A stretch of DNA of 13,093 bases, from positions 1-13,093 of the forward strand of contig CAXHNU010000082.1 of the NCBI GenBank assembly GCA_964017555.1. Direction: 5' to 3'. The DNA is from an uncultured Butyricicoccus sp. (GTDB lineage: Bacteria; Bacillota; Clostridia; Oscillospirales; Butyricicoccaceae). Below, piece after piece: positions 2,184-8,151 of this stretch. Numbering within the stretch: position 1 is the stretch's first letter; each line of letters begins with the position of its first letter. The translations under genes and the position numbers were made by a program. The notes beneath the pieces were generated by a model, which did not search any database, was not told the origin of the DNA, and saw nothing but the letters and a program-made list of their open reading frames with translations.

Positions 2184-2487
2184 CTGCGTGCTCCTCCTTA
2201 TGGAATGTAATCGCCTGGAATGGGCAGACTTTTGCACAAATGCCGCAGCCCTTGCAATGGTCAAAATCAAAATCAAGGCGTTTGCCATCCGTCACCGGGA
2301 TGGAGGAATCCGGGCAATATGGCGCGCAAAGCAAACATTGTTTGCATTTGGATTCATCCCAAGTTGGGGTTTGGGTGCGCCATTCCCCGGTAATGGTCAG
2401 GCGGGCTGTGCCCGGCTCATAGATTTCACAACCGGGCGTCAGTTCATACCATTTGGATTGTTCATTGATATTTGCTGCTTTTTTCAT
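2176..2487 (-). CDS. porD: 2-oxoacid:ferredoxin oxidoreductase delta subunit (2x[4Fe-4S] ferredoxin)
   Basis: 103 aa with two CxxCxxCxxxCP ferredoxin motifs (CKQCLLCAPYCP and CKGCGICAKVCP). Its ATG overlaps the gamma-subunit stop (ATGA). GAGGTG RBS. Confidence 0.85.
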   Translation of the reverse strand: MKKAANINEQSKWYELTPGCEIYEPGTARLTITGEWRTQTPTWDESKCKQCLLCAPYCPDSSIPVTDGKRLDFDFDHCKGCGICAKVCPFQAITFHKEEHADG

Positions 2488-3062
2488 CCGATTTGCACCT
2501 CGCGCATGGATTTCGCCAGTGCATTCATATTGCCTTCAATAACTTGGGGCTTTGTGGAAAATTTATGTTGGAATGATGCTTTCATATCGCTGACAAAACG
2601 GTTTGGCTCCACAACGCCGGAAACCTTGACCGCAGCGGCAAGCATTGGGGTATTCGGGAAGTTTTTACCAAGAGTTTCCTCAGAAATGCGGCGTGCGTCA
2701 ATGGTGCAGACCTTGCCGGCATAGCCGTTGAGCATGGGGCGGATTTCTTCCGGAGTTTTTTCGGTGTTGATGATGATTGCGCCTTCATTGGACAGCCCAG
2801 CGGTCACATTGACCGATTCAAGCAAGGTTTCATCAACAACGACAACATAGTCGGGATTGTAAATATTGGAATGCACGGTGCAGCGTTCATCAGAAATGCG
2901 GTTATACGCGGTAATCGGTGCGCCCATACGTTCGGGGCCATATTCCGGGAAGCCCTGGACATATTTGCCCGATGAGAAAGCAGCGTCTGCAAGCAGTAAG
3001 CAAGCTGTTTTGGCGCCCTGACCGCCGCGCCCGTGCCAACGGATTTCAACTGGTTTGTTCAT
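2484..3062 (-). CDS. porG: 2-oxoacid:ferredoxin oxidoreductase gamma subunit
   Basis: 192 aa starting MNKPVEIRWHGRGGQGAKTA, the hallmark N-terminus of POR/VOR gamma subunits. Strong RBS AGGAGGAAAATACC before ATG at 3060-3062. First gene of the operon. Confidence 0.85.
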   Translation of the reverse strand: MNKPVEIRWHGRGGQGAKTACLLLADAAFSSGKYVQGFPEYGPERMGAPITAYNRISDERCTVHSNIYNPDYVVVVDETLLESVNVTAGLSNEGAIIINTEKTPEEIRPMLNGYAGKVCTIDARRISEETLGKNFPNTPMLAAAVKVSGVVEPNRFVSDMKASFQHKFSTKPQVIEGNMNALAKSMREVQIG

Positions 3063-3372
3063 GGTATTTTCCTCCTATCATCTTGTGAAAAGTGTTTCGT
3101 GACAAAATATAAAAAAGCAGCCGTCCGTAAAAGGACAGCTGCTGAAAAAGCGCTGTAAACCACCTGTTACCGTACCATCATACGTTCTCCTAGAATAACG
3201 GCAGGAGAAAACCGGCAAAGCCTACTTGCCCAAAGCAAAAGGGGGGTTCGGTGTGCAGCTCAGGAGTGATTTTCGGCAACGCGCGACTCGCACCGGGCTT
3301 GCACTGTCCCCGGTTCGCTGTGGCTTTTGCTGCGTGCTTACTCTCTCCGTCAAAGCCTTTATTTGTTTCATT
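3063..3372 (-). ncRNA. Structured 5' leader of the por operon (about 310 nt). Candidate T-box-like or riboswitch transcription attenuator with mutually exclusive antiterminator and terminator.
   Basis: A near-consensus promoter lies upstream. The terminator sits at the 3' end. An alternative pairing GUAACAGG (3163-3170) with CCUUUUAC (3127-3134), plus inner helix ACAGC/GCUGU around a 7-nt bulge UGGUUUA, would consume the terminator 5' arm. AGG-UGGUUUA-CAGCG resembles the T-box core AGGG-UGGNACC-GCG. GGAGAGAGUA sits near the 5' end like a T-box stem I start. Several internal hairpins are present (CCGGG..CCCGG at about 3268-3290; UUCUCCU..AGGAGAA at about 3177-3205). Confidence 0.45.
3104..3144 (-). 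terminator. Intrinsic terminator (attenuator) inside the por operon leader
   Basis: Minus-strand RNA CAGCAGCUGUCC-UUUUAC-GGACGGCUGCU (one G-U pair) is followed by UUUUUUAUAUUUU. The U-tract ends about 40 nt before the porG ATG, leaving no room for a separate promoter, so this is a regulatory terminator rather than a gene-end terminator. Confidence 0.7.
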
Positions 3373-3379
3373 GACTAAT

Positions 3380-3408
3380 AGTATAAACTGTTTCCCAGTT
3401 TGTTGCAA
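3380..3408 (-). promoter_or_regulatory. Sigma-A type promoter TTGCAA-N17-TATACT driving the por leader and operon
   Basis: On the minus strand, -35 TTGCAA is the reverse complement of 3403-3408 and -10 TATACT is the reverse complement of 3380-3385, with exact 17-nt spacing. Predicted TSS is near 3372. Confidence 0.55.
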
Positions 3409-3499: not shown

Positions 3500-4423
3500 T
3501 TATGCCATTTTCTTTGGGCTGCCATTGTCAAATGGCACATCATAATGGTGCAGCAACAGCCAGCCCGCGTCAAATTCGGCAGCATACTGCCCGGCAAGGT
3601 GCGCGGCGGTATCCATTGCGGATTCCATCAGTTCGGGTACGGATTCGGTGCGTTCGGTTTCGGGCTGCCATAGGTTATGCCATGCGGCGTGTTCCAGGTT
3701 CAGGCAATTCCATTCCGGCGGATCGATTTTCATATGGCTGGTCAGCAATGCGCCGCGCCCGGCAAGCCCTTCCAGCTTCTGCAACCCGTGGTAGATGGAA
3801 GCGTTTTCACTGTAAAGGAAGTTTTCCACAGTCAGCATTTCACGGAATGCGGCGCGCAGATCGGCAGTGCTGACACGCAGCCCATAAACTGTGCCAAGCA
3901 GGTAATGCAGCAGCACAGCCTGCACCGCAATTTCTTCATCCGACGCGGCATAATATTTGCCGGGGTCAAAATCGGTCACTGGCGCATGGTATTCCTGTTC
4001 ATACAAAGCATAATCAATATCGCTTTCAATCTGGCAATGGACTGCGGAGGGGTTTAGTTTGGGATCAGCTTCCAAACATTCATGCTGGCGGCAATAGACA
4101 TAGGGATGCACTGTGCTGTCCAATGCGTAATGGCACAAAAAGCCATAGAAATAGGCTTCTGCAATGGCACGGTTATCCCCTGTCATGCGGTTGACCGCGC
4201 GGGCAAATGCAAAAAACAATTCATCAGTGCATTCTGAGTGCATTTGGTTGCCATATTTGTGCAGCGGGCTGCCAAAAGCCAGCTTGCGATAAAAAAGCGG
4301 ATCGGGGCCTTGAAGCCCCCAATTAAAAGCAGCCGGACGCCGTACAGCGGCAAGCTGCACAACTGCGGGGAATTTATCCTGTACAAGTTCACCAAACAGG
4401 TAATGTGATACAAAATCTGCCAT
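3500..4423 (-). CDS. Zinc-dependent phospholipase C / nuclease P1-fold family protein, cytoplasmic (no signal peptide)
   Basis: 307 aa. N-terminal HYLFGE and the internal CHYALDSTVHPYVY motif align with the Zn-ligand motif HYLGDxxQPMH of B. cereus PLC-fold enzymes. RBS GGAGAGG. Stop TAA at 3500-3502. Confidence 0.55.
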   Translation of the reverse strand: MADFVSHYLFGELVQDKFPAVVQLAAVRRPAAFNWGLQGPDPLFYRKLAFGSPLHKYGNQMHSECTDELFFAFARAVNRMTGDNRAIAEAYFYGFLCHYALDSTVHPYVYCRQHECLEADPKLNPSAVHCQIESDIDYALYEQEYHAPVTDFDPGKYYAASDEEIAVQAVLLHYLLGTVYGLRVSTADLRAAFREMLTVENFLYSENASIYHGLQKLEGLAGRGALLTSHMKIDPPEWNCLNLEHAAWHNLWQPETERTESVPELMESAMDTAAHLAGQYAAEFDAGWLLLHHYDVPFDNGSPKKMA

Positions 4424-4561: not shown

Positions 4562-5005
4562 TCAGTCAATTTTCGGCAGACTGCGCAATGCTTCTTCGGG
4601 CACATGGACAGGTCCACAGCCAGCGCATTTGGAACAGTCATGCATACACGCCATGGGGTCATTGGGATCTTCTTCGCGGCAGGCTTCTAAAATGCCGGGA
4701 TCGCCTTGTTTTTCGCCGACAATGAATTTTGCGGCGGCTTCTTCGGCTGCGCCGGTGACGCCAGGCACCAGCACAATGCCGAGCATTTCCAGCGCATTGC
4801 GCAGAGCAATGCCAAGCGCATTGCAGATAAATACATCTGCCTGCGCCATACTCACAAATGTCAGCAAAGCAGTCGGGCTGCTGCCGGGCGCGGCAGCAAG
4901 TTCCTTTGCACAGGGTGTGCCATTTTCCACAGTAACCAGCAGGTATTCCGGACAGCCAGCGGCGTCAGCAACCATGCCATCCTGACAGGCAATTGCAATT
5001 TTCAT
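4562..5005 (-). CDS. NifB/NifX-family (dinitrogenase FeMo-cofactor-binding fold, DUF134-like) protein with Cys-rich C-terminal tail
   Basis: Start chosen at ATG 5003-5005 (MKIAIACQDG), which has an AGAGGAAAA RBS. The six-frame ORF start at 5026 is a GTG overlapping the upstream stop. 147 aa. C-terminal motif ACMHDCSKCAGCG. Confidence 0.65.
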   Translation of the reverse strand: MKIAIACQDGMVADAAGCPEYLLVTVENGTPCAKELAAAPGSSPTALLTFVSMAQADVFICNALGIALRNALEMLGIVLVPGVTGAAEEAAAKFIVGEKQGDPGILEACREEDPNDPMACMHDCSKCAGCGPVHVPEEALRSLPKID

Positions 5006-5022
5006 GGAATTTTCCTCTACTT

Positions 5023-5841
5023 TCACAGCATATCTTCCAGCACACGCATTGCGCCATGTAATGCCTCCGGCAGTTTGACGTCCTCGATATCGCCGCGGTC
5101 AACCGCGGCGGCAAGGTTCGGGTCAAGCGGCAGCCGCGCAAGCACAGGCAAATCATATTCAGCGGCAACCGCGTCCAGCTTGCTTTTGCCAAAGACTTCA
5201 ATTTGCTTGCCGCAGTCCGGGCAGACAAGATAGCTGTAATTTTCGATGATGCCCACAATCGGGATGTTCATCATTTTTGCCATTTTTACCGCTTTGCCCA
5301 CAATCATCGAAACCAGATCCTGTGGAGAAGTCAGCACAATAATGCCGTCAACCGGCAGCGATTGGAACACAGTCAGCGGAACGTCGCCCGTGCCGGGCGG
5401 CATATCGACAAACATAAAATCGACATCTTTCCAAATCACATCTGCCCAAAACTGTTTTACGGTTTCGGCGATAATAGGGCCACGGTAAATCACCGGGTCG
5501 TCGGTATGGTCAAGGACAAAGTTAATGGAAACCATATCAATGCCGGTTTCAGAAGTTTTGGGGAAAATGCCTTCTTCACAGCCTTCCAGCCTGCCGCTGA
5601 CACCAAAGGCTTTTGGGATGGATGGACCAGTGATATCCGCGTCCAAAATGGCGGTATGATATCCTTTGCGGCACATGGCAACCGCAAGCATAGATGTTGC
5701 AAGGCTTTTGCCAACGCCGCCCTTGCCGGAAATCACGCCAATGACTTTTTTAATGCTGGATAGATTATTTGGTTTAACAAGCAGGCTTTCGGGTTCGCCG
5801 CAGCCAGCTTGGCAGGAATCGCAGTTATGTGAGCAACCCAT
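5023..5841 (-). CDS. Mrp/NBP35 (ApbC-like) P-loop ATPase, iron-sulfur cluster carrier
   Basis: 272 aa. Walker A GKGGVGKS and the conserved CPDC cluster-bridging motif are present. N-terminal extension MGCSHNCDSCQAGCG has 4 Cys. RBS AAAGGAGC. Confidence 0.85.
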   Translation of the reverse strand: MGCSHNCDSCQAGCGEPESLLVKPNNLSSIKKVIGVISGKGGVGKSLATSMLAVAMCRKGYHTAILDADITGPSIPKAFGVSGRLEGCEEGIFPKTSETGIDMVSINFVLDHTDDPVIYRGPIIAETVKQFWADVIWKDVDFMFVDMPPGTGDVPLTVFQSLPVDGIIVLTSPQDLVSMIVGKAVKMAKMMNIPIVGIIENYSYLVCPDCGKQIEVFGKSKLDAVAAEYDLPVLARLPLDPNLAAAVDRGDIEDVKLPEALHGAMRVLEDML

Positions 5842-5988: not shown

Positions 5989-7380
5989 TTATTGTTCATC
6001 CGGCAAAGTGGGTTCAGCGGGCGGTTTGATGGGTGTGCCAAGGTAAGAAGGCATTTCAAGACCCGCTTGTTTGAATAAATCCTGCATTGGCGGGATCGCC
6101 TGCATCAGCCCGGATACAAAACCGGCTGTAGAGGATTTGCCGTCTTGGGCGCCATTGTCCCAAACGGTGACTTTATCAATTTTCAGATTGCTGATGGCAT
6201 CCACCTGGATACGGGTGAGTTCTTCCAGTTTATCCGCAATCATAAGCTGTACGGCGGCTTGTGGGTCGCCAGCGGCGGCGCTGACCAGCGCCGCAATACC
6301 TTTCGCTTGCTGCTCCAGAATTTCGCGTGCGCCGCGTGCTTCCGCTTCCATGCGAGCATAAATCGCGTCGGCTTCGCCGCGCGCCTTGCGGCGCGTGACC
6401 TCGGCTTCCGCCTCGGCAGCGATTTCCGCCTGCTGTTTATCGATTTCCGCTTTTACGATAATATCCGCCTGTTGGGTTGCTTTTTCCAGTTCGGCACGGG
6501 TTTGTTCTGCCTGTTGCTGGGCAATATAGGCTTCTTGTTTTGCTTTTGCTGCCTGTACGGCTTCTGCTGCGGTTGCCTGCCGCAAGGCTTCGGCTTCCTT
6601 TTCACGGCGGCGGGCTTCGGATTGAGCAACTTCAATTTTTGCGCTGTTTTCGCCATCAATCGCGGAGGCGTTTGCCGCCGCAACTTGTACGCGCTGATCC
6701 CGCTGGGCATTTGCCTGACCGATTTCACCGTCACGGTTTTTCTCCGCGACCGATTTTTTCGCGTCATTGATTGCTTTTGCGGCAGCTTCCTTGCCAAGCG
6801 CGTCAATATAACCGGATTCATCATTGATATCGGTGACATTGACGTTAATCAGCCGCAAACCGATTTTTTTGAGTTCAATTTCGACATTGTTAGATACTGC
6901 GACAAGGAATTTATCCCGATCGGTATTGATTTCCTCGATATCCATCGTGGCAATGACCAAACGGAGCTGACCGAAAATAATATCTTTTGCAAGTTCCTGG
7001 ATTTCGCTGAGTTTTAACCCGAGCAGGCGTTCCGCGGCATTTTGCATCACGCCGGGTTCGGTGGAAATGCCCACGGTGAACCGCGACGGCACATCAATGC
7101 GGATATTCTGCTTGCTGAGGGCGTTTTTCAGGTCAACACTGATGGAAATTGGGGTTAAGTCAAGGTATTGGTATGACTGAATCACCGGCACGATAAATGC
7201 CGCGCCGCCATGGATACATTTTGCAGTGCGGGTCTGACCATTTTTATCCGACCCGACCTTACCATAAATGACCAGGATTTTATCCGCGGGGCATTTGCGG
7301 TAACGCGACAAAATGGCAATCAACGCGGCAAACAGCACCACCACAATGATGCAGATTGAAATAAGAAGCTGGAATGGCAT
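5989..7380 (-). CDS. floT: Flotillin / SPFH (band-7) domain protein, FloT/YqiK-like
   Basis: Start chosen at ATG 7378-7380 (MPFQLLISICIIVVV, N-terminal TM hairpin) with RBS AAGGAGGAAAAAT. The six-frame ORF extends 17 codons further without an RBS. SPFH domain is followed by a long Ala/Glu/Gln-rich coiled-coil, typical of flotillins. Confidence 0.85.
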   Translation of the reverse strand: MPFQLLISICIIVVVLFAALIAILSRYRKCPADKILVIYGKVGSDKNGQTRTAKCIHGGAAFIVPVIQSYQYLDLTPISISVDLKNALSKQNIRIDVPSRFTVGISTEPGVMQNAAERLLGLKLSEIQELAKDIIFGQLRLVIATMDIEEINTDRDKFLVAVSNNVEIELKKIGLRLINVNVTDINDESGYIDALGKEAAAKAINDAKKSVAEKNRDGEIGQANAQRDQRVQVAAANASAIDGENSAKIEVAQSEARRREKEAEALRQATAAEAVQAAKAKQEAYIAQQQAEQTRAELEKATQQADIIVKAEIDKQQAEIAAEAEAEVTRRKARGEADAIYARMEAEARGAREILEQQAKGIAALVSAAAGDPQAAVQLMIADKLEELTRIQVDAISNLKIDKVTVWDNGAQDGKSSTAGFVSGLMQAIPPMQDLFKQAGLEMPSYLGTPIKPPAEPTLPDEQ

Positions 7381-7443
7381 ATTTTTCCTCCTTTTCTGTG
7401 ACACATGATGTGGATCGTTTATTTTCTGCAAAAGGGTACTTAT

Positions 7444-8115
7444 TTATGTTTCTTCCCGTTCCACAATGAGCATATCCCCCCGCAAATCGACAATACGTAC
7501 ACTGGTACCGGTTGGAATTGCGTCGCCTTCCGTAATGGCACTGCATTCCCGCAGCTGTCCCTGCACCTGTACCATCACCTTGCCGGGGCTTACACCCTTG
7601 GCAGCAATCGGCAGATAGACCCGCCCATTTTCGCCGATGGCGTTTTTTAAGCTGATGGTACCATTTTCCGCGAGTTTTGACGAAGCCTGCACCAATTTTG
7701 CCACCAAAAACATCGCAATGCCGCCCAGCACCAAACCAAACAGCAAGCTGAATAATGGTTCTGTGCCCGCGTGGATGGATGCAATGGATGACCAGGAAAA
7801 CACGGTTAAAAATGCAACAATGGTTTGCAGCGTCAGCAGGCGCATGGCTGTGGCATCGCCAGGGCTGCTGCCATCTGTATAATGCTGGATATCCATTTGG
7901 TCAGGCATATCAAAATCCAAACTCACATCCACGCCATCCGGCACATCCAGGTCAAGCCCGGAAGTATCGCTGTAATTGACACCTTCCCCGCTGTCACTGC
8001 CAAGCATACTCATCAGCGTTTGGATCACAAGCAGCAAGGTGGACGGCACCGCCATGCAGTAAAGCACCCGCAAGATATCGCTGAGGCTTTCCCACCATAC
8101 TATCATTTGTTCCAT
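7444..8115 (-). CDS. NfeD-family membrane protein (YuaF-like flotillin partner with C-terminal OB-fold)
   Basis: Start chosen at ATG 8113-8115 (MEQMIVWWESL) with RBS AAAGGGGG. Hydrophobic TM region, then an OB-fold-like C-terminus (VMVQVQGQLRECSAITEG..VRIVDLRGDMLIVE). Lies 63 nt upstream of the flotillin gene, the conserved NfeD-flotillin operon arrangement. Confidence 0.75.
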   Translation of the reverse strand: MEQMIVWWESLSDILRVLYCMAVPSTLLLVIQTLMSMLGSDSGEGVNYSDTSGLDLDVPDGVDVSLDFDMPDQMDIQHYTDGSSPGDATAMRLLTLQTIVAFLTVFSWSSIASIHAGTEPLFSLLFGLVLGGIAMFLVAKLVQASSKLAENGTISLKNAIGENGRVYLPIAAKGVSPGKVMVQVQGQLRECSAITEGDAIPTGTSVRIVDLRGDMLIVEREET

Positions 8116-8151
8116 ATGGCAGCCCCCTTTCCGATTCATTCGCCTCAAAAG

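Follow-up and report, generated by a model that had tools for sequence, protein, structure and literature searches.

On the minus strand of a 13,093-nucleotide (nt) stretch of DNA from an uncultured Butyricicoccus species (GenBank assembly GCA_964017555.1, contig CAXHNU010000082.1; the whole stretch is referred to here as the window), exactly four genes, encoding the gamma, delta, alpha and beta subunits of a 2-oxoacid:ferredoxin oxidoreductase (OFOR), form an operon (3062–44) that is followed by convergent spoVA genes. A leader of approximately 260 nt follows the promoter and ends in an intrinsic terminator ahead of the first gene. Judging from its sequence, the segment 3362–3104 (−) is very probably a class I transcriptional T-box riboswitch, and we hold with high confidence the wider explanation, in which a T-box specific for tRNA-Ile gates the four-gene operon. 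Comparison with homologous sequences establishes the architecture of this RNA, its specificity for isoleucine, its conservation and covariation, and its kinship with the leaders of isoleucyl-tRNA synthetase genes (ileS). The RNA belongs to a known family; the unusual part is its target, a stand-alone operon of the POR/VOR family (POR, pyruvate:ferredoxin oxidoreductase). All leader and operon features are on the minus strand and are given in window coordinates. In the comparison of gamma-subunit loci, the window was 99% identical to a Butyricicoccus metagenome-assembled genome (MAG).

Architecture of the leader

The transcription signals and RNA modules of the leader are as follows.

3380–3408 (−): sigma-70-type promoter from a consensus scan; −35 TTGCAA at 3408–3403, 17-nt spacer, −10 TATACT at 3385–3380
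3257–3357 (−): T-box stem I, with basal helix, K-turn, specifier loop, AG bulge and distal loop (Rfam alignment; RNAalifold columns 7–111)
3354–3339 (−): K-turn/GA motif UGA...GGAG-AGAGUA within stem I (RF00230 alignment)
3321–3315 (−): AG bulge ACAGCGA within stem I, aligned to the Rfam consensus AGAGA
3308–3298 (−): distal loop GACAGUGCAAG (AGUGCAA) within stem I, aligned to the Rfam consensus GGUGaaA
3267–3274 (−): 3′ side of the specifier loop, GAA-A-AUC-A, with the isoleucine codon AUC at 3270–3268 and a conserved purine, A, at 3267
3215–3256 (−): stem II with S-turn (CCGAA ... AAGUAGG; Rfam alignment), GAA and AGUAGG conserved, apical part variable
3185–3214 (−): stem IIA/B pseudoknot, comprising the hairpin CGG-UUUUCUCCUG-CCG, the F-box CCGUUA and the 3′ strand AGGAGAA (3191–3185), which pairs with the hairpin loop
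3171–3184 (−): stem III CGUAUGAUGGUACG, flanked by purines in GAA-C-G (5′) and GUAAC (3′), 3189–3166 overall
3127–3170 (−): T-box sequence AGGUGGUuuACAGCG and antiterminator, with helix A1 (GUAA.AGG/CCU.UUAC), bulge UGGUUU(A) at 3162–3156 and helix A2 ((A)CAGC/GCUG(U))
3104–3143 (−): intrinsic terminator, with an 11-base-pair stem AGCAGCTGTCCTTTTACGGACGGCTGCT at 3143–3116 (7 G-C pairs) and U-tract TTTTTATATTTT at 3115–3104
3060–3076 (−): ribosome-binding site AGGAGG (3076–3071) and start codon ATG (3062–3060) of the gamma gene

The T-box model of Rfam, RF00230, aligned over its full length (model positions 1–219 of 219) to 3362..3128 with 56.2 bits and an E-value of 1.3e-11 (Rfam, E-value mode), and all T-box modules were present in this alignment in the canonical order. 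The next-best Rfam family on the leader reached only E = 1.7, and a search of the whole window against Rfam at the gathering threshold matched no family. The original prediction, made from the letters of the window, had seen a T-box-type terminator/antiterminator switch here, and the full-length alignment, together with the invariant specifier loop and the covariation described below, bears this out. Its candidate for the start of stem I, GGAGAGAGUA, supplies in the RF00230 alignment the 5′ strand of both the K-turn and the specifier loop of stem I. It had also named the right codon, AUC followed by A, but in the wrong place: the specifier is at 3270..3267, within the loop sequence GAAAAUCA (GAA-A-AUC-A-CUCC-UGAGC at 3274–3258), whereas 3215–3225, where it had been sought, is the 3′ side of stem II. 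The flanks of stem III fit the RRRxG-stem III-AA motif defined for T-boxes (PMC7583486).

The near-consensus promoter TTGCAA-N17-TATACT proposed earlier was recovered at 3408..3380, from which we place the transcription start near 3373. The proposed terminator was likewise found at 3143..3104, its U-tract ending approximately 40 nt ahead of the gamma start codon at 3062. Its 5′ arm is at the same time the 3′ strand of the antiterminator (3139–3127), which makes the two folds mutually exclusive. Taken alone, 3170..3127 has the antiterminator as its minimum-free-energy fold (−11.3 kcal/mol), formed by GUAACAGG/CCUUUUAC and the inner helix ACAGC/GCUGU that had been put forward as the alternative to the terminator; with the 3′ arm added, the terminator becomes the favoured fold (−24.0 kcal/mol). 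The folding energy of the whole leader was not unusual (z = −0.92), so that support for this element comes from sequence comparison and not from thermodynamics.

Conservation and covariation

The comparison set consisted of the 80 closest gamma-subunit loci, on contigs from one genome per species. Of these, 32 have the same leader ahead of the orthologous gamma gene; counts of 33 leaders below refer to the window plus these 32 loci, and the RNAalifold alignment holds 32 sequences. A hidden Markov model of the leader alignment, run with nhmmer, matched only the 32 loci (E-values of 1e-51 to 1e-68) and detected no more divergent T-box at the other 48. Eight of these 48 leader-less loci were searched with Rfam, which returned only tRNAs and a group II intron fragment. 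The carriers include the cultured Agathobaculum desmolans (ATCC 43058), Agathobaculum sp. Marseille-P7918 and Intestinibacillus massiliensis, as well as many Butyricicoccus and Oscillospiraceae MAGs, two Anaerovoracaceae and one Syntrophomonas. Bins labelled Eggerthellaceae (L043), Flexilinea (L071) and Barnesiella intestinihominis (L079) also carry a Firmicute-type isoleucine T-box with an OFOR operon, those of L071 and L079 being almost identical to one another; for these three labels, binning contamination seems a more likely source than the named hosts.

All 33 leaders share the specifier-loop sequence GAA-N-AUC-A, where N may be A, G, U or C and AUC-A is invariant. AUC is the preferred specifier of isoleucine T-boxes (TBDB paper, PMC7778990). 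Metagenome leaders of OFOR operons with a readable specifier also proved to be isoleucine leaders, one in full (L198) and one in part (L199).

The helices covary in the homologous leaders. In the RNAalifold structure, which also recovers the IIA hairpin, 21 of the 35 predicted pairs show compensatory changes; these pairs belong to stem I, stem III and the terminator. Stem III pairs lie at columns 184–201, where pair 185/200, for example, is GC in 13 sequences, AU in 11 and GU in 8; the terminator pairs (columns 249–274) show compensatory changes as well. The antiterminator was evaluated as a set of helices that we specified: 93.4% of its cells were paired, compared with 37–59% when partners were slid, and none of 500 shuffles reached the observed pairing or covariation (column pair 214/257, for instance, is AU in 14 and GC in 14). 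The strands of the pseudoknot also exchange in concert (UUCUCC/GGAGAA, CCCC/GGGG, CCUC/GAGG and GCUUUG/CGAAGC), with a mean helix of 5.1 pairs compared with 3.7 in shuffles, around an invariant CGG/CCG hairpin and a conserved CCGUUA. In stem I, columns A45, G46, G48, A49, G60, U61, G62 and A65 are invariant, and by its sequence the distal part would form the platform of interdigitated T-loops that receives the tRNA elbow. On RF00230, the orthologous leaders scored 69–87 bits, and one OFOR-linked leader (L045) passed the gathering score (93 bits) with 94.4 bits. Across the 32 species, these alignments make purifying selection evident for every helix, the codon and UGGU.

This pattern bears on whether the leader matters for expression of the operon at all. 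The original prediction had seen no plausible promoter between the terminator and the start codon. That does not hold to the letter, and it is a point against our explanation that two promoter-like matches (9/12) lie downstream of the terminator, at 3105..3077 and 3089..3061. If they were used, the leader could be a decayed relic or be bypassed, with the operon transcribed mainly from within this interval. Both matches are weak, however, and the alignment shows no conservation where they lie. The interval itself is short, the gap from U-tract to start codon being only 20–86 nt in 31 of the 32 orthologous loci (252 nt in the exception, L060), and a relic would not be expected to show the selection on helices, codon and UGGU just described. 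Upstream, a TATACT or TATAAT hexamer is found 24–39 nt before the GA motif of stem I in 22 of the 32 loci. We therefore regard a decayed or bypassed leader as very improbable. In the exceptional Syntrophomonas locus (L060:2750–3000), approximately 250 nt of unassigned sequence separate the T-box terminator from the gamma gene.

An unconventional bulge shared with ileS leaders

The antiterminator bulge departs from the T-box consensus. The family core is (A/G)GG-UGGU-NNN-ACG, in which UGGU is invariant and abuts helix A1; this UGGU presumably matches the A73 discriminator base of tRNA-Ile. The 7-nt bulge UGGUUUA originally proposed for the window does exist as a bulge, but an A-U pair closes it there at 6 nt (UGGUUU), leaving only UU as its 3′ part. 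Relative to the 7-nt bulge of the family, the window and three other leaders (L002, L003 and L025) carry a 1-nt deletion.

Several features of the RNA count against its being a T-box. The canonical 3′-ACC of the bulge is absent, its last three bases varying among the leaders (AUA in 13, ACA in 5, then UUA, AGA, UAA, GAA and others). The basal pair of helix A2 is A-U in 21 of 28 leaders and G-U in the remaining 7, with the U invariant. According to a review (PMC7583486), ACC stabilises the discriminator in canonical T-boxes, and the uridine of the G-U pair provides the main steric sensing of a 3′-aminoacyl group. No tRNA-Ile gene was present in the loci scanned for its discriminator base. In addition, the 56.2 bits of the window fall below the gathering score of RF00230. 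A low Rfam score and a 6-nt bulge without ACC would also suit a different or new attenuator class, sensing a metabolite or a protein, for example, that merely resembles a T-box.

Leaders outside the OFOR loci speak to this point. A metagenome scan with the core pattern AGTAACNGGTGGTNNNNCG gave at least 120 matches; the 120 listed are mostly due to chance but include six real leaders. Among the matches listed, two leaders precede OFOR gamma genes and four precede genes whose products begin MY(D/Q)KV...; the two of these four products that could be read at full length are isoleucyl-tRNA synthetases (TIGR00392, 966–968 bits). The four ileS leaders, from gut and other metagenomes, are located as follows.

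L200:5612–5841 (−): ileS leader
L090:208–440: ileS leader
L146:4654–4929: ileS leader
L126:2805–2920 (−): ileS leader, partial

They belong to the same sequence family as the OFOR leader (nhmmer E-values of 1e-46 to 1e-22, the latter for the partial L126) and share with it GAA-N-AUC-A, the AGUAAC-(A/G)GG-UGGU core, a non-ACC bulge and the terminator layout. The AUC-A specifier is present in the three full-length leaders, and the bulge lacks ACC in all four (UGA in two, AUA and AAA in one each). They differ from the OFOR leader in the downstream gene, which encodes isoleucyl-tRNA synthetase, and L146 has a longer stem III and stem II.

Because the ileS leaders share the non-ACC bulge, the OFOR leader is best described as a sibling of the ileS T-box of this lineage and not as a new class. 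We accordingly treat the bulge as a lineage trait that gives no ground for excluding a T-box, and a new class defined by the non-ACC bulge was rejected as a candidate, since ileS leaders carry the same bulge type. The fallback of the original prediction, a divergent or new attenuator class, falls away with it. Such a class would have to accommodate T-box modules that are all in canonical order and covarying, an invariant AUC-A and UGGU, the same variant ahead of ileS, an ortholog (L045) that passes the gathering score, and the lack of a match to any other Rfam family; we consider it extremely improbable.

The ileS leaders of this type score 74–87 bits on RF00230, and most members of the subfamily 56–87 bits. 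Since these values lie below the gathering score, ileS included, routine Rfam annotation would miss most of this isoleucine subfamily. The subfamily would sense aminoacylation without a conserved ACC and, mostly, without the G-U pair, a part of our joint reading to which we give even chances; its bulge offers a natural test of the roles proposed for both elements.

The operon downstream of the leader

The four genes downstream of the leader encode the following subunits.

2484–3062 (−): OFOR gamma, 192 amino acids (aa); Pfam POR, 1.7e-40; TIGR02175 PorC_KorC, 213.7 bits
2176–2487 (−): OFOR delta, 103 aa, a 2x[4Fe-4S] ferredoxin-like protein; Pfam Fer4; TIGR02179 PorD_KorD, 98.2 bits
1002–2183 (−): OFOR alpha, 393 aa; Pfam POR_N and PFOR_II; start at ATG 2183, as in public gene calls and fitting homologues
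44–973 (−): OFOR beta, 309 aa, thiamine-diphosphate binding, last gene; Pfam TPP_enzyme_C

The mechanical open reading frame (ORF) of alpha starts at 2288 and would give 428 aa, overlapping the delta gene by approximately 110 nt. Gamma and delta passed the NCBIfam subfamily models TIGR02175 (cut-off 81.1) and TIGR02179 (cut-off 60.05), respectively. The best solved relative of alpha is 9bt4_B, a POR alpha subunit (1.6e-89).

A number of observations on the operon run counter to a role in isoleucine synthesis. For none of the four subunits was an NCBIfam equivalog cut-off reached, whether for Por, Vor, oxalate or phenylglyoxylate enzymes, and the scores lie nearer to POR than to VOR models: alpha scored 472.7 bits on PorA_Arch (cut-off 550) and 351.3 on VOR alpha (cut-off 646), beta 356.3 on PorB (cut-off 405), gamma 192 on PorC (cut-off 270) and delta 93.5 on PorD (cut-off 120). 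In a neighbour-joining tree, all T-box-linked alpha subunits fall into one clade, which also contains eight loci without a T-box; the Oscillibacter-type alpha clade (62–65% identity) has no T-box. The active-site motifs PITPST and NRAL.GPININNDH are identical in T-box and T-box-less clades. Amino-acid and acyl-CoA genes are not conserved among the flanking ORFs of the T-box loci; what flanks the operon depends on the lineage (AI-2E transporter, acyltransferase, DUF3825, IMS polymerase and others), without any metabolic gene. The active-site motifs were considered as a substrate discriminator and rejected, being the same in both clades.

Two loci of the T-box alpha clade that are themselves without a T-box (L007 and L010) have a TTGACA...TATAAT promoter approximately 60–150 nt upstream of gamma (approximately 2850–2940 in locus coordinates). 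Behind this promoter lies a near-palindrome (AGTTGTCTGACAAGT in L007, AGTTGTCGGACAAGT in L010), which could be the operator for a protein regulator that replaces the T-box.

These data allow a reading in which the T-box is real but the enzyme is an ordinary pyruvate:ferredoxin oxidoreductase/pyruvate synthase, or a catabolic 2-oxoacid oxidoreductase, instead of an isoleucine carboxylase. Coupling to tRNA-Ile would then serve, for example, general carbon or redox supply during amino-acid starvation. PorA, PorB and PorC models do score highest, the nearest solved structure is a pyruvate:ferredoxin oxidoreductase, the substrate-site Thr, Arg and Ile positions of the Desulfovibrio enzyme align with PITPST and NRAL.GPININNDH, and isoleucine-pathway neighbours are not conserved. 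However, the POR equivalog cut-offs were all missed, and the isoleucine specifier is present in every genome leader (33 of 33) and in L198 and, partially, L199. T-box targets normally raise the supply of the cognate charged tRNA, and a cell short of isoleucine would work against itself by breaking down a 2-oxoacid derived from that amino acid. On balance we consider an enzyme not dedicated to isoleucine unlikely, though it is the alternative that we take most seriously.

Proposed mechanism and metabolic role

By analogy with characterized T-boxes, the leader would act through tRNA-dependent antitermination. Transcription would begin at the promoter (3408–3380), and stem I would offer AUC (3270–3268) to the GAU anticodon of tRNA-Ile, which stem II, the IIA/B pseudoknot and the distal platform of stem I would help to hold. 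If the tRNA is uncharged, its 3′ ACCA end could pair with UGGU in the bulge (3162–3159) and steady the weak antiterminator (3170–3127), allowing RNA polymerase to read into the OFOR operon (3062–44). With charged tRNA, the stronger terminator (3143–3104) would form and transcription would halt approximately 40 nt before the start codon.

Genes under T-box control raise the supply of the cognate charged tRNA. Induction by uncharged tRNA-Ile would therefore mean that the enzyme works in the biosynthetic direction. Run reductively, the OFOR would carboxylate an acyl-CoA with reduced ferredoxin to give an isoleucine precursor, either 2-oxo-3-methylvalerate from 2-methylbutyryl-CoA or 2-oxobutyrate from propionyl-CoA. 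On analogy with other T-box targets, we think a role of this OFOR in isoleucine synthesis probable. The two candidate substrates appear about equally likely. Because the subunits score closer to POR, a 2-oxobutyrate-forming role is about as likely as the VOR-type role in reductive branched-chain amino-acid synthesis that the original prediction had, reasonably, put forward, and the POR-like scores may tilt the choice slightly towards the small substrate and 2-oxobutyrate.

Taken further, isoleucine synthesis from exogenous 2-methylbutyrate or propionate in Oscillospirales of the gut and rumen (Butyricicoccus, Agathobaculum, Intestinibacillus and relatives) may depend on this POR-like enzyme as a dedicated ferredoxin-dependent reductive carboxylase, a proposal that we regard as evenly balanced. 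The specificity of the T-box serves as a built-in functional label, tying to isoleucine supply an OFOR operon that homology cannot assign. If true, a gene would be identified for an isoleucine pathway that has been known physiologically for decades, and the T-box regulon would extend to a CO2-fixing iron-sulfur redox enzyme. For butyrate-producing Clostridia, which are abundant in the gut, there would also be a gene through which to study how isoleucine is made by reductive carboxylation of short-chain fatty acids, and this would bear on the prediction of auxotrophy and on the exchange of branched-chain fatty acids or propionate by cross-feeding.

Neighbouring genes in the window

Directly upstream of the promoter, 3500–4423 (−) encodes a 307-aa protein that is conserved in L001–L003 only; it gave a sub-threshold match to Zn-dependent phospholipase C and no NCBIfam match. 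The next segment, 4562–5841 (−), encodes a Mrp/NUBPL-type P-loop ATPase of the iron-sulfur transfer type (272 aa; Pfam ParA, 9.9e-84) beside a 154-aa protein with a weak match to the dinitrogenase FeMo-cofactor-binding family. Encoded beside an Fe-S enzyme, these two proteins could work as a pair in Fe-S maturation; when the flanking ORFs of the T-box loci were clustered, they grouped with no other locus. Further upstream, 5989–8148 (−) encodes an SPFH/Band 7 protein (480 aa) beside an NfeD-like protein (234 aa). Proteins of these two kinds form a usual membrane pair, which appears unrelated to the T-box and the OFOR operon.

Comparison with known systems

Class I T-boxes (RF00230), such as the tyrS and glyQS leaders of Bacillus subtilis, share with the leader described here a long stem I with K-turn, a specifier loop with codon and purine, the AG bulge, the distal loop, the stem II S-turn, the IIA/B pseudoknot with CCGUUA, a purine-flanked stem III and a competing terminator with U-tract. 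They differ from it in the bulge, the 3′ half of which is variable here, and in the basal pair of helix A2, which here is mostly A-U. The target differs as well, being a ferredoxin-dependent oxidoreductase instead of an aminoacyl-tRNA synthetase, a classical biosynthetic operon or a transporter. No paper in the literature searched ties T-boxes to 2-oxoacid:ferredoxin oxidoreductases, a search whose scope did not extend to the classic surveys (PMC2271356 and PMC2650889), where an earlier mention is possible.

The encoded enzyme has the same set of subunits and domains as four-subunit OFORs, among them archaeal POR and VOR, the POR of PDB entry 9bt4 and the oxalate oxidoreductase of Moorella (5c4i). 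It differs from these in that the operon of the window reaches no equivalog model, and its T-box-linked alpha clade is separate from the Oscillibacter type.

For the proposed reaction there are two points of reference. In Methanobrevibacter ruminantium, the accepted route to isoleucine is the reductive carboxylation of 2-methylbutyrate (PMC2812497), and PorA of Clostridium sporogenes, an enzyme of the PFOR superfamily, processes all three branched-chain substrates (bioRxiv 10.1101/401489). In the literature searched, T-box control has been reported for neither system. C. sporogenes PorA works oxidatively; the direction and substrate proposed here follow from the regulator alone. Together, the route of rumen bacteria and methanogens and the PorA of C. 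sporogenes set a precedent for a ferredoxin-dependent OFOR that joins branched short-chain acyl-CoAs and 2-oxoacids.

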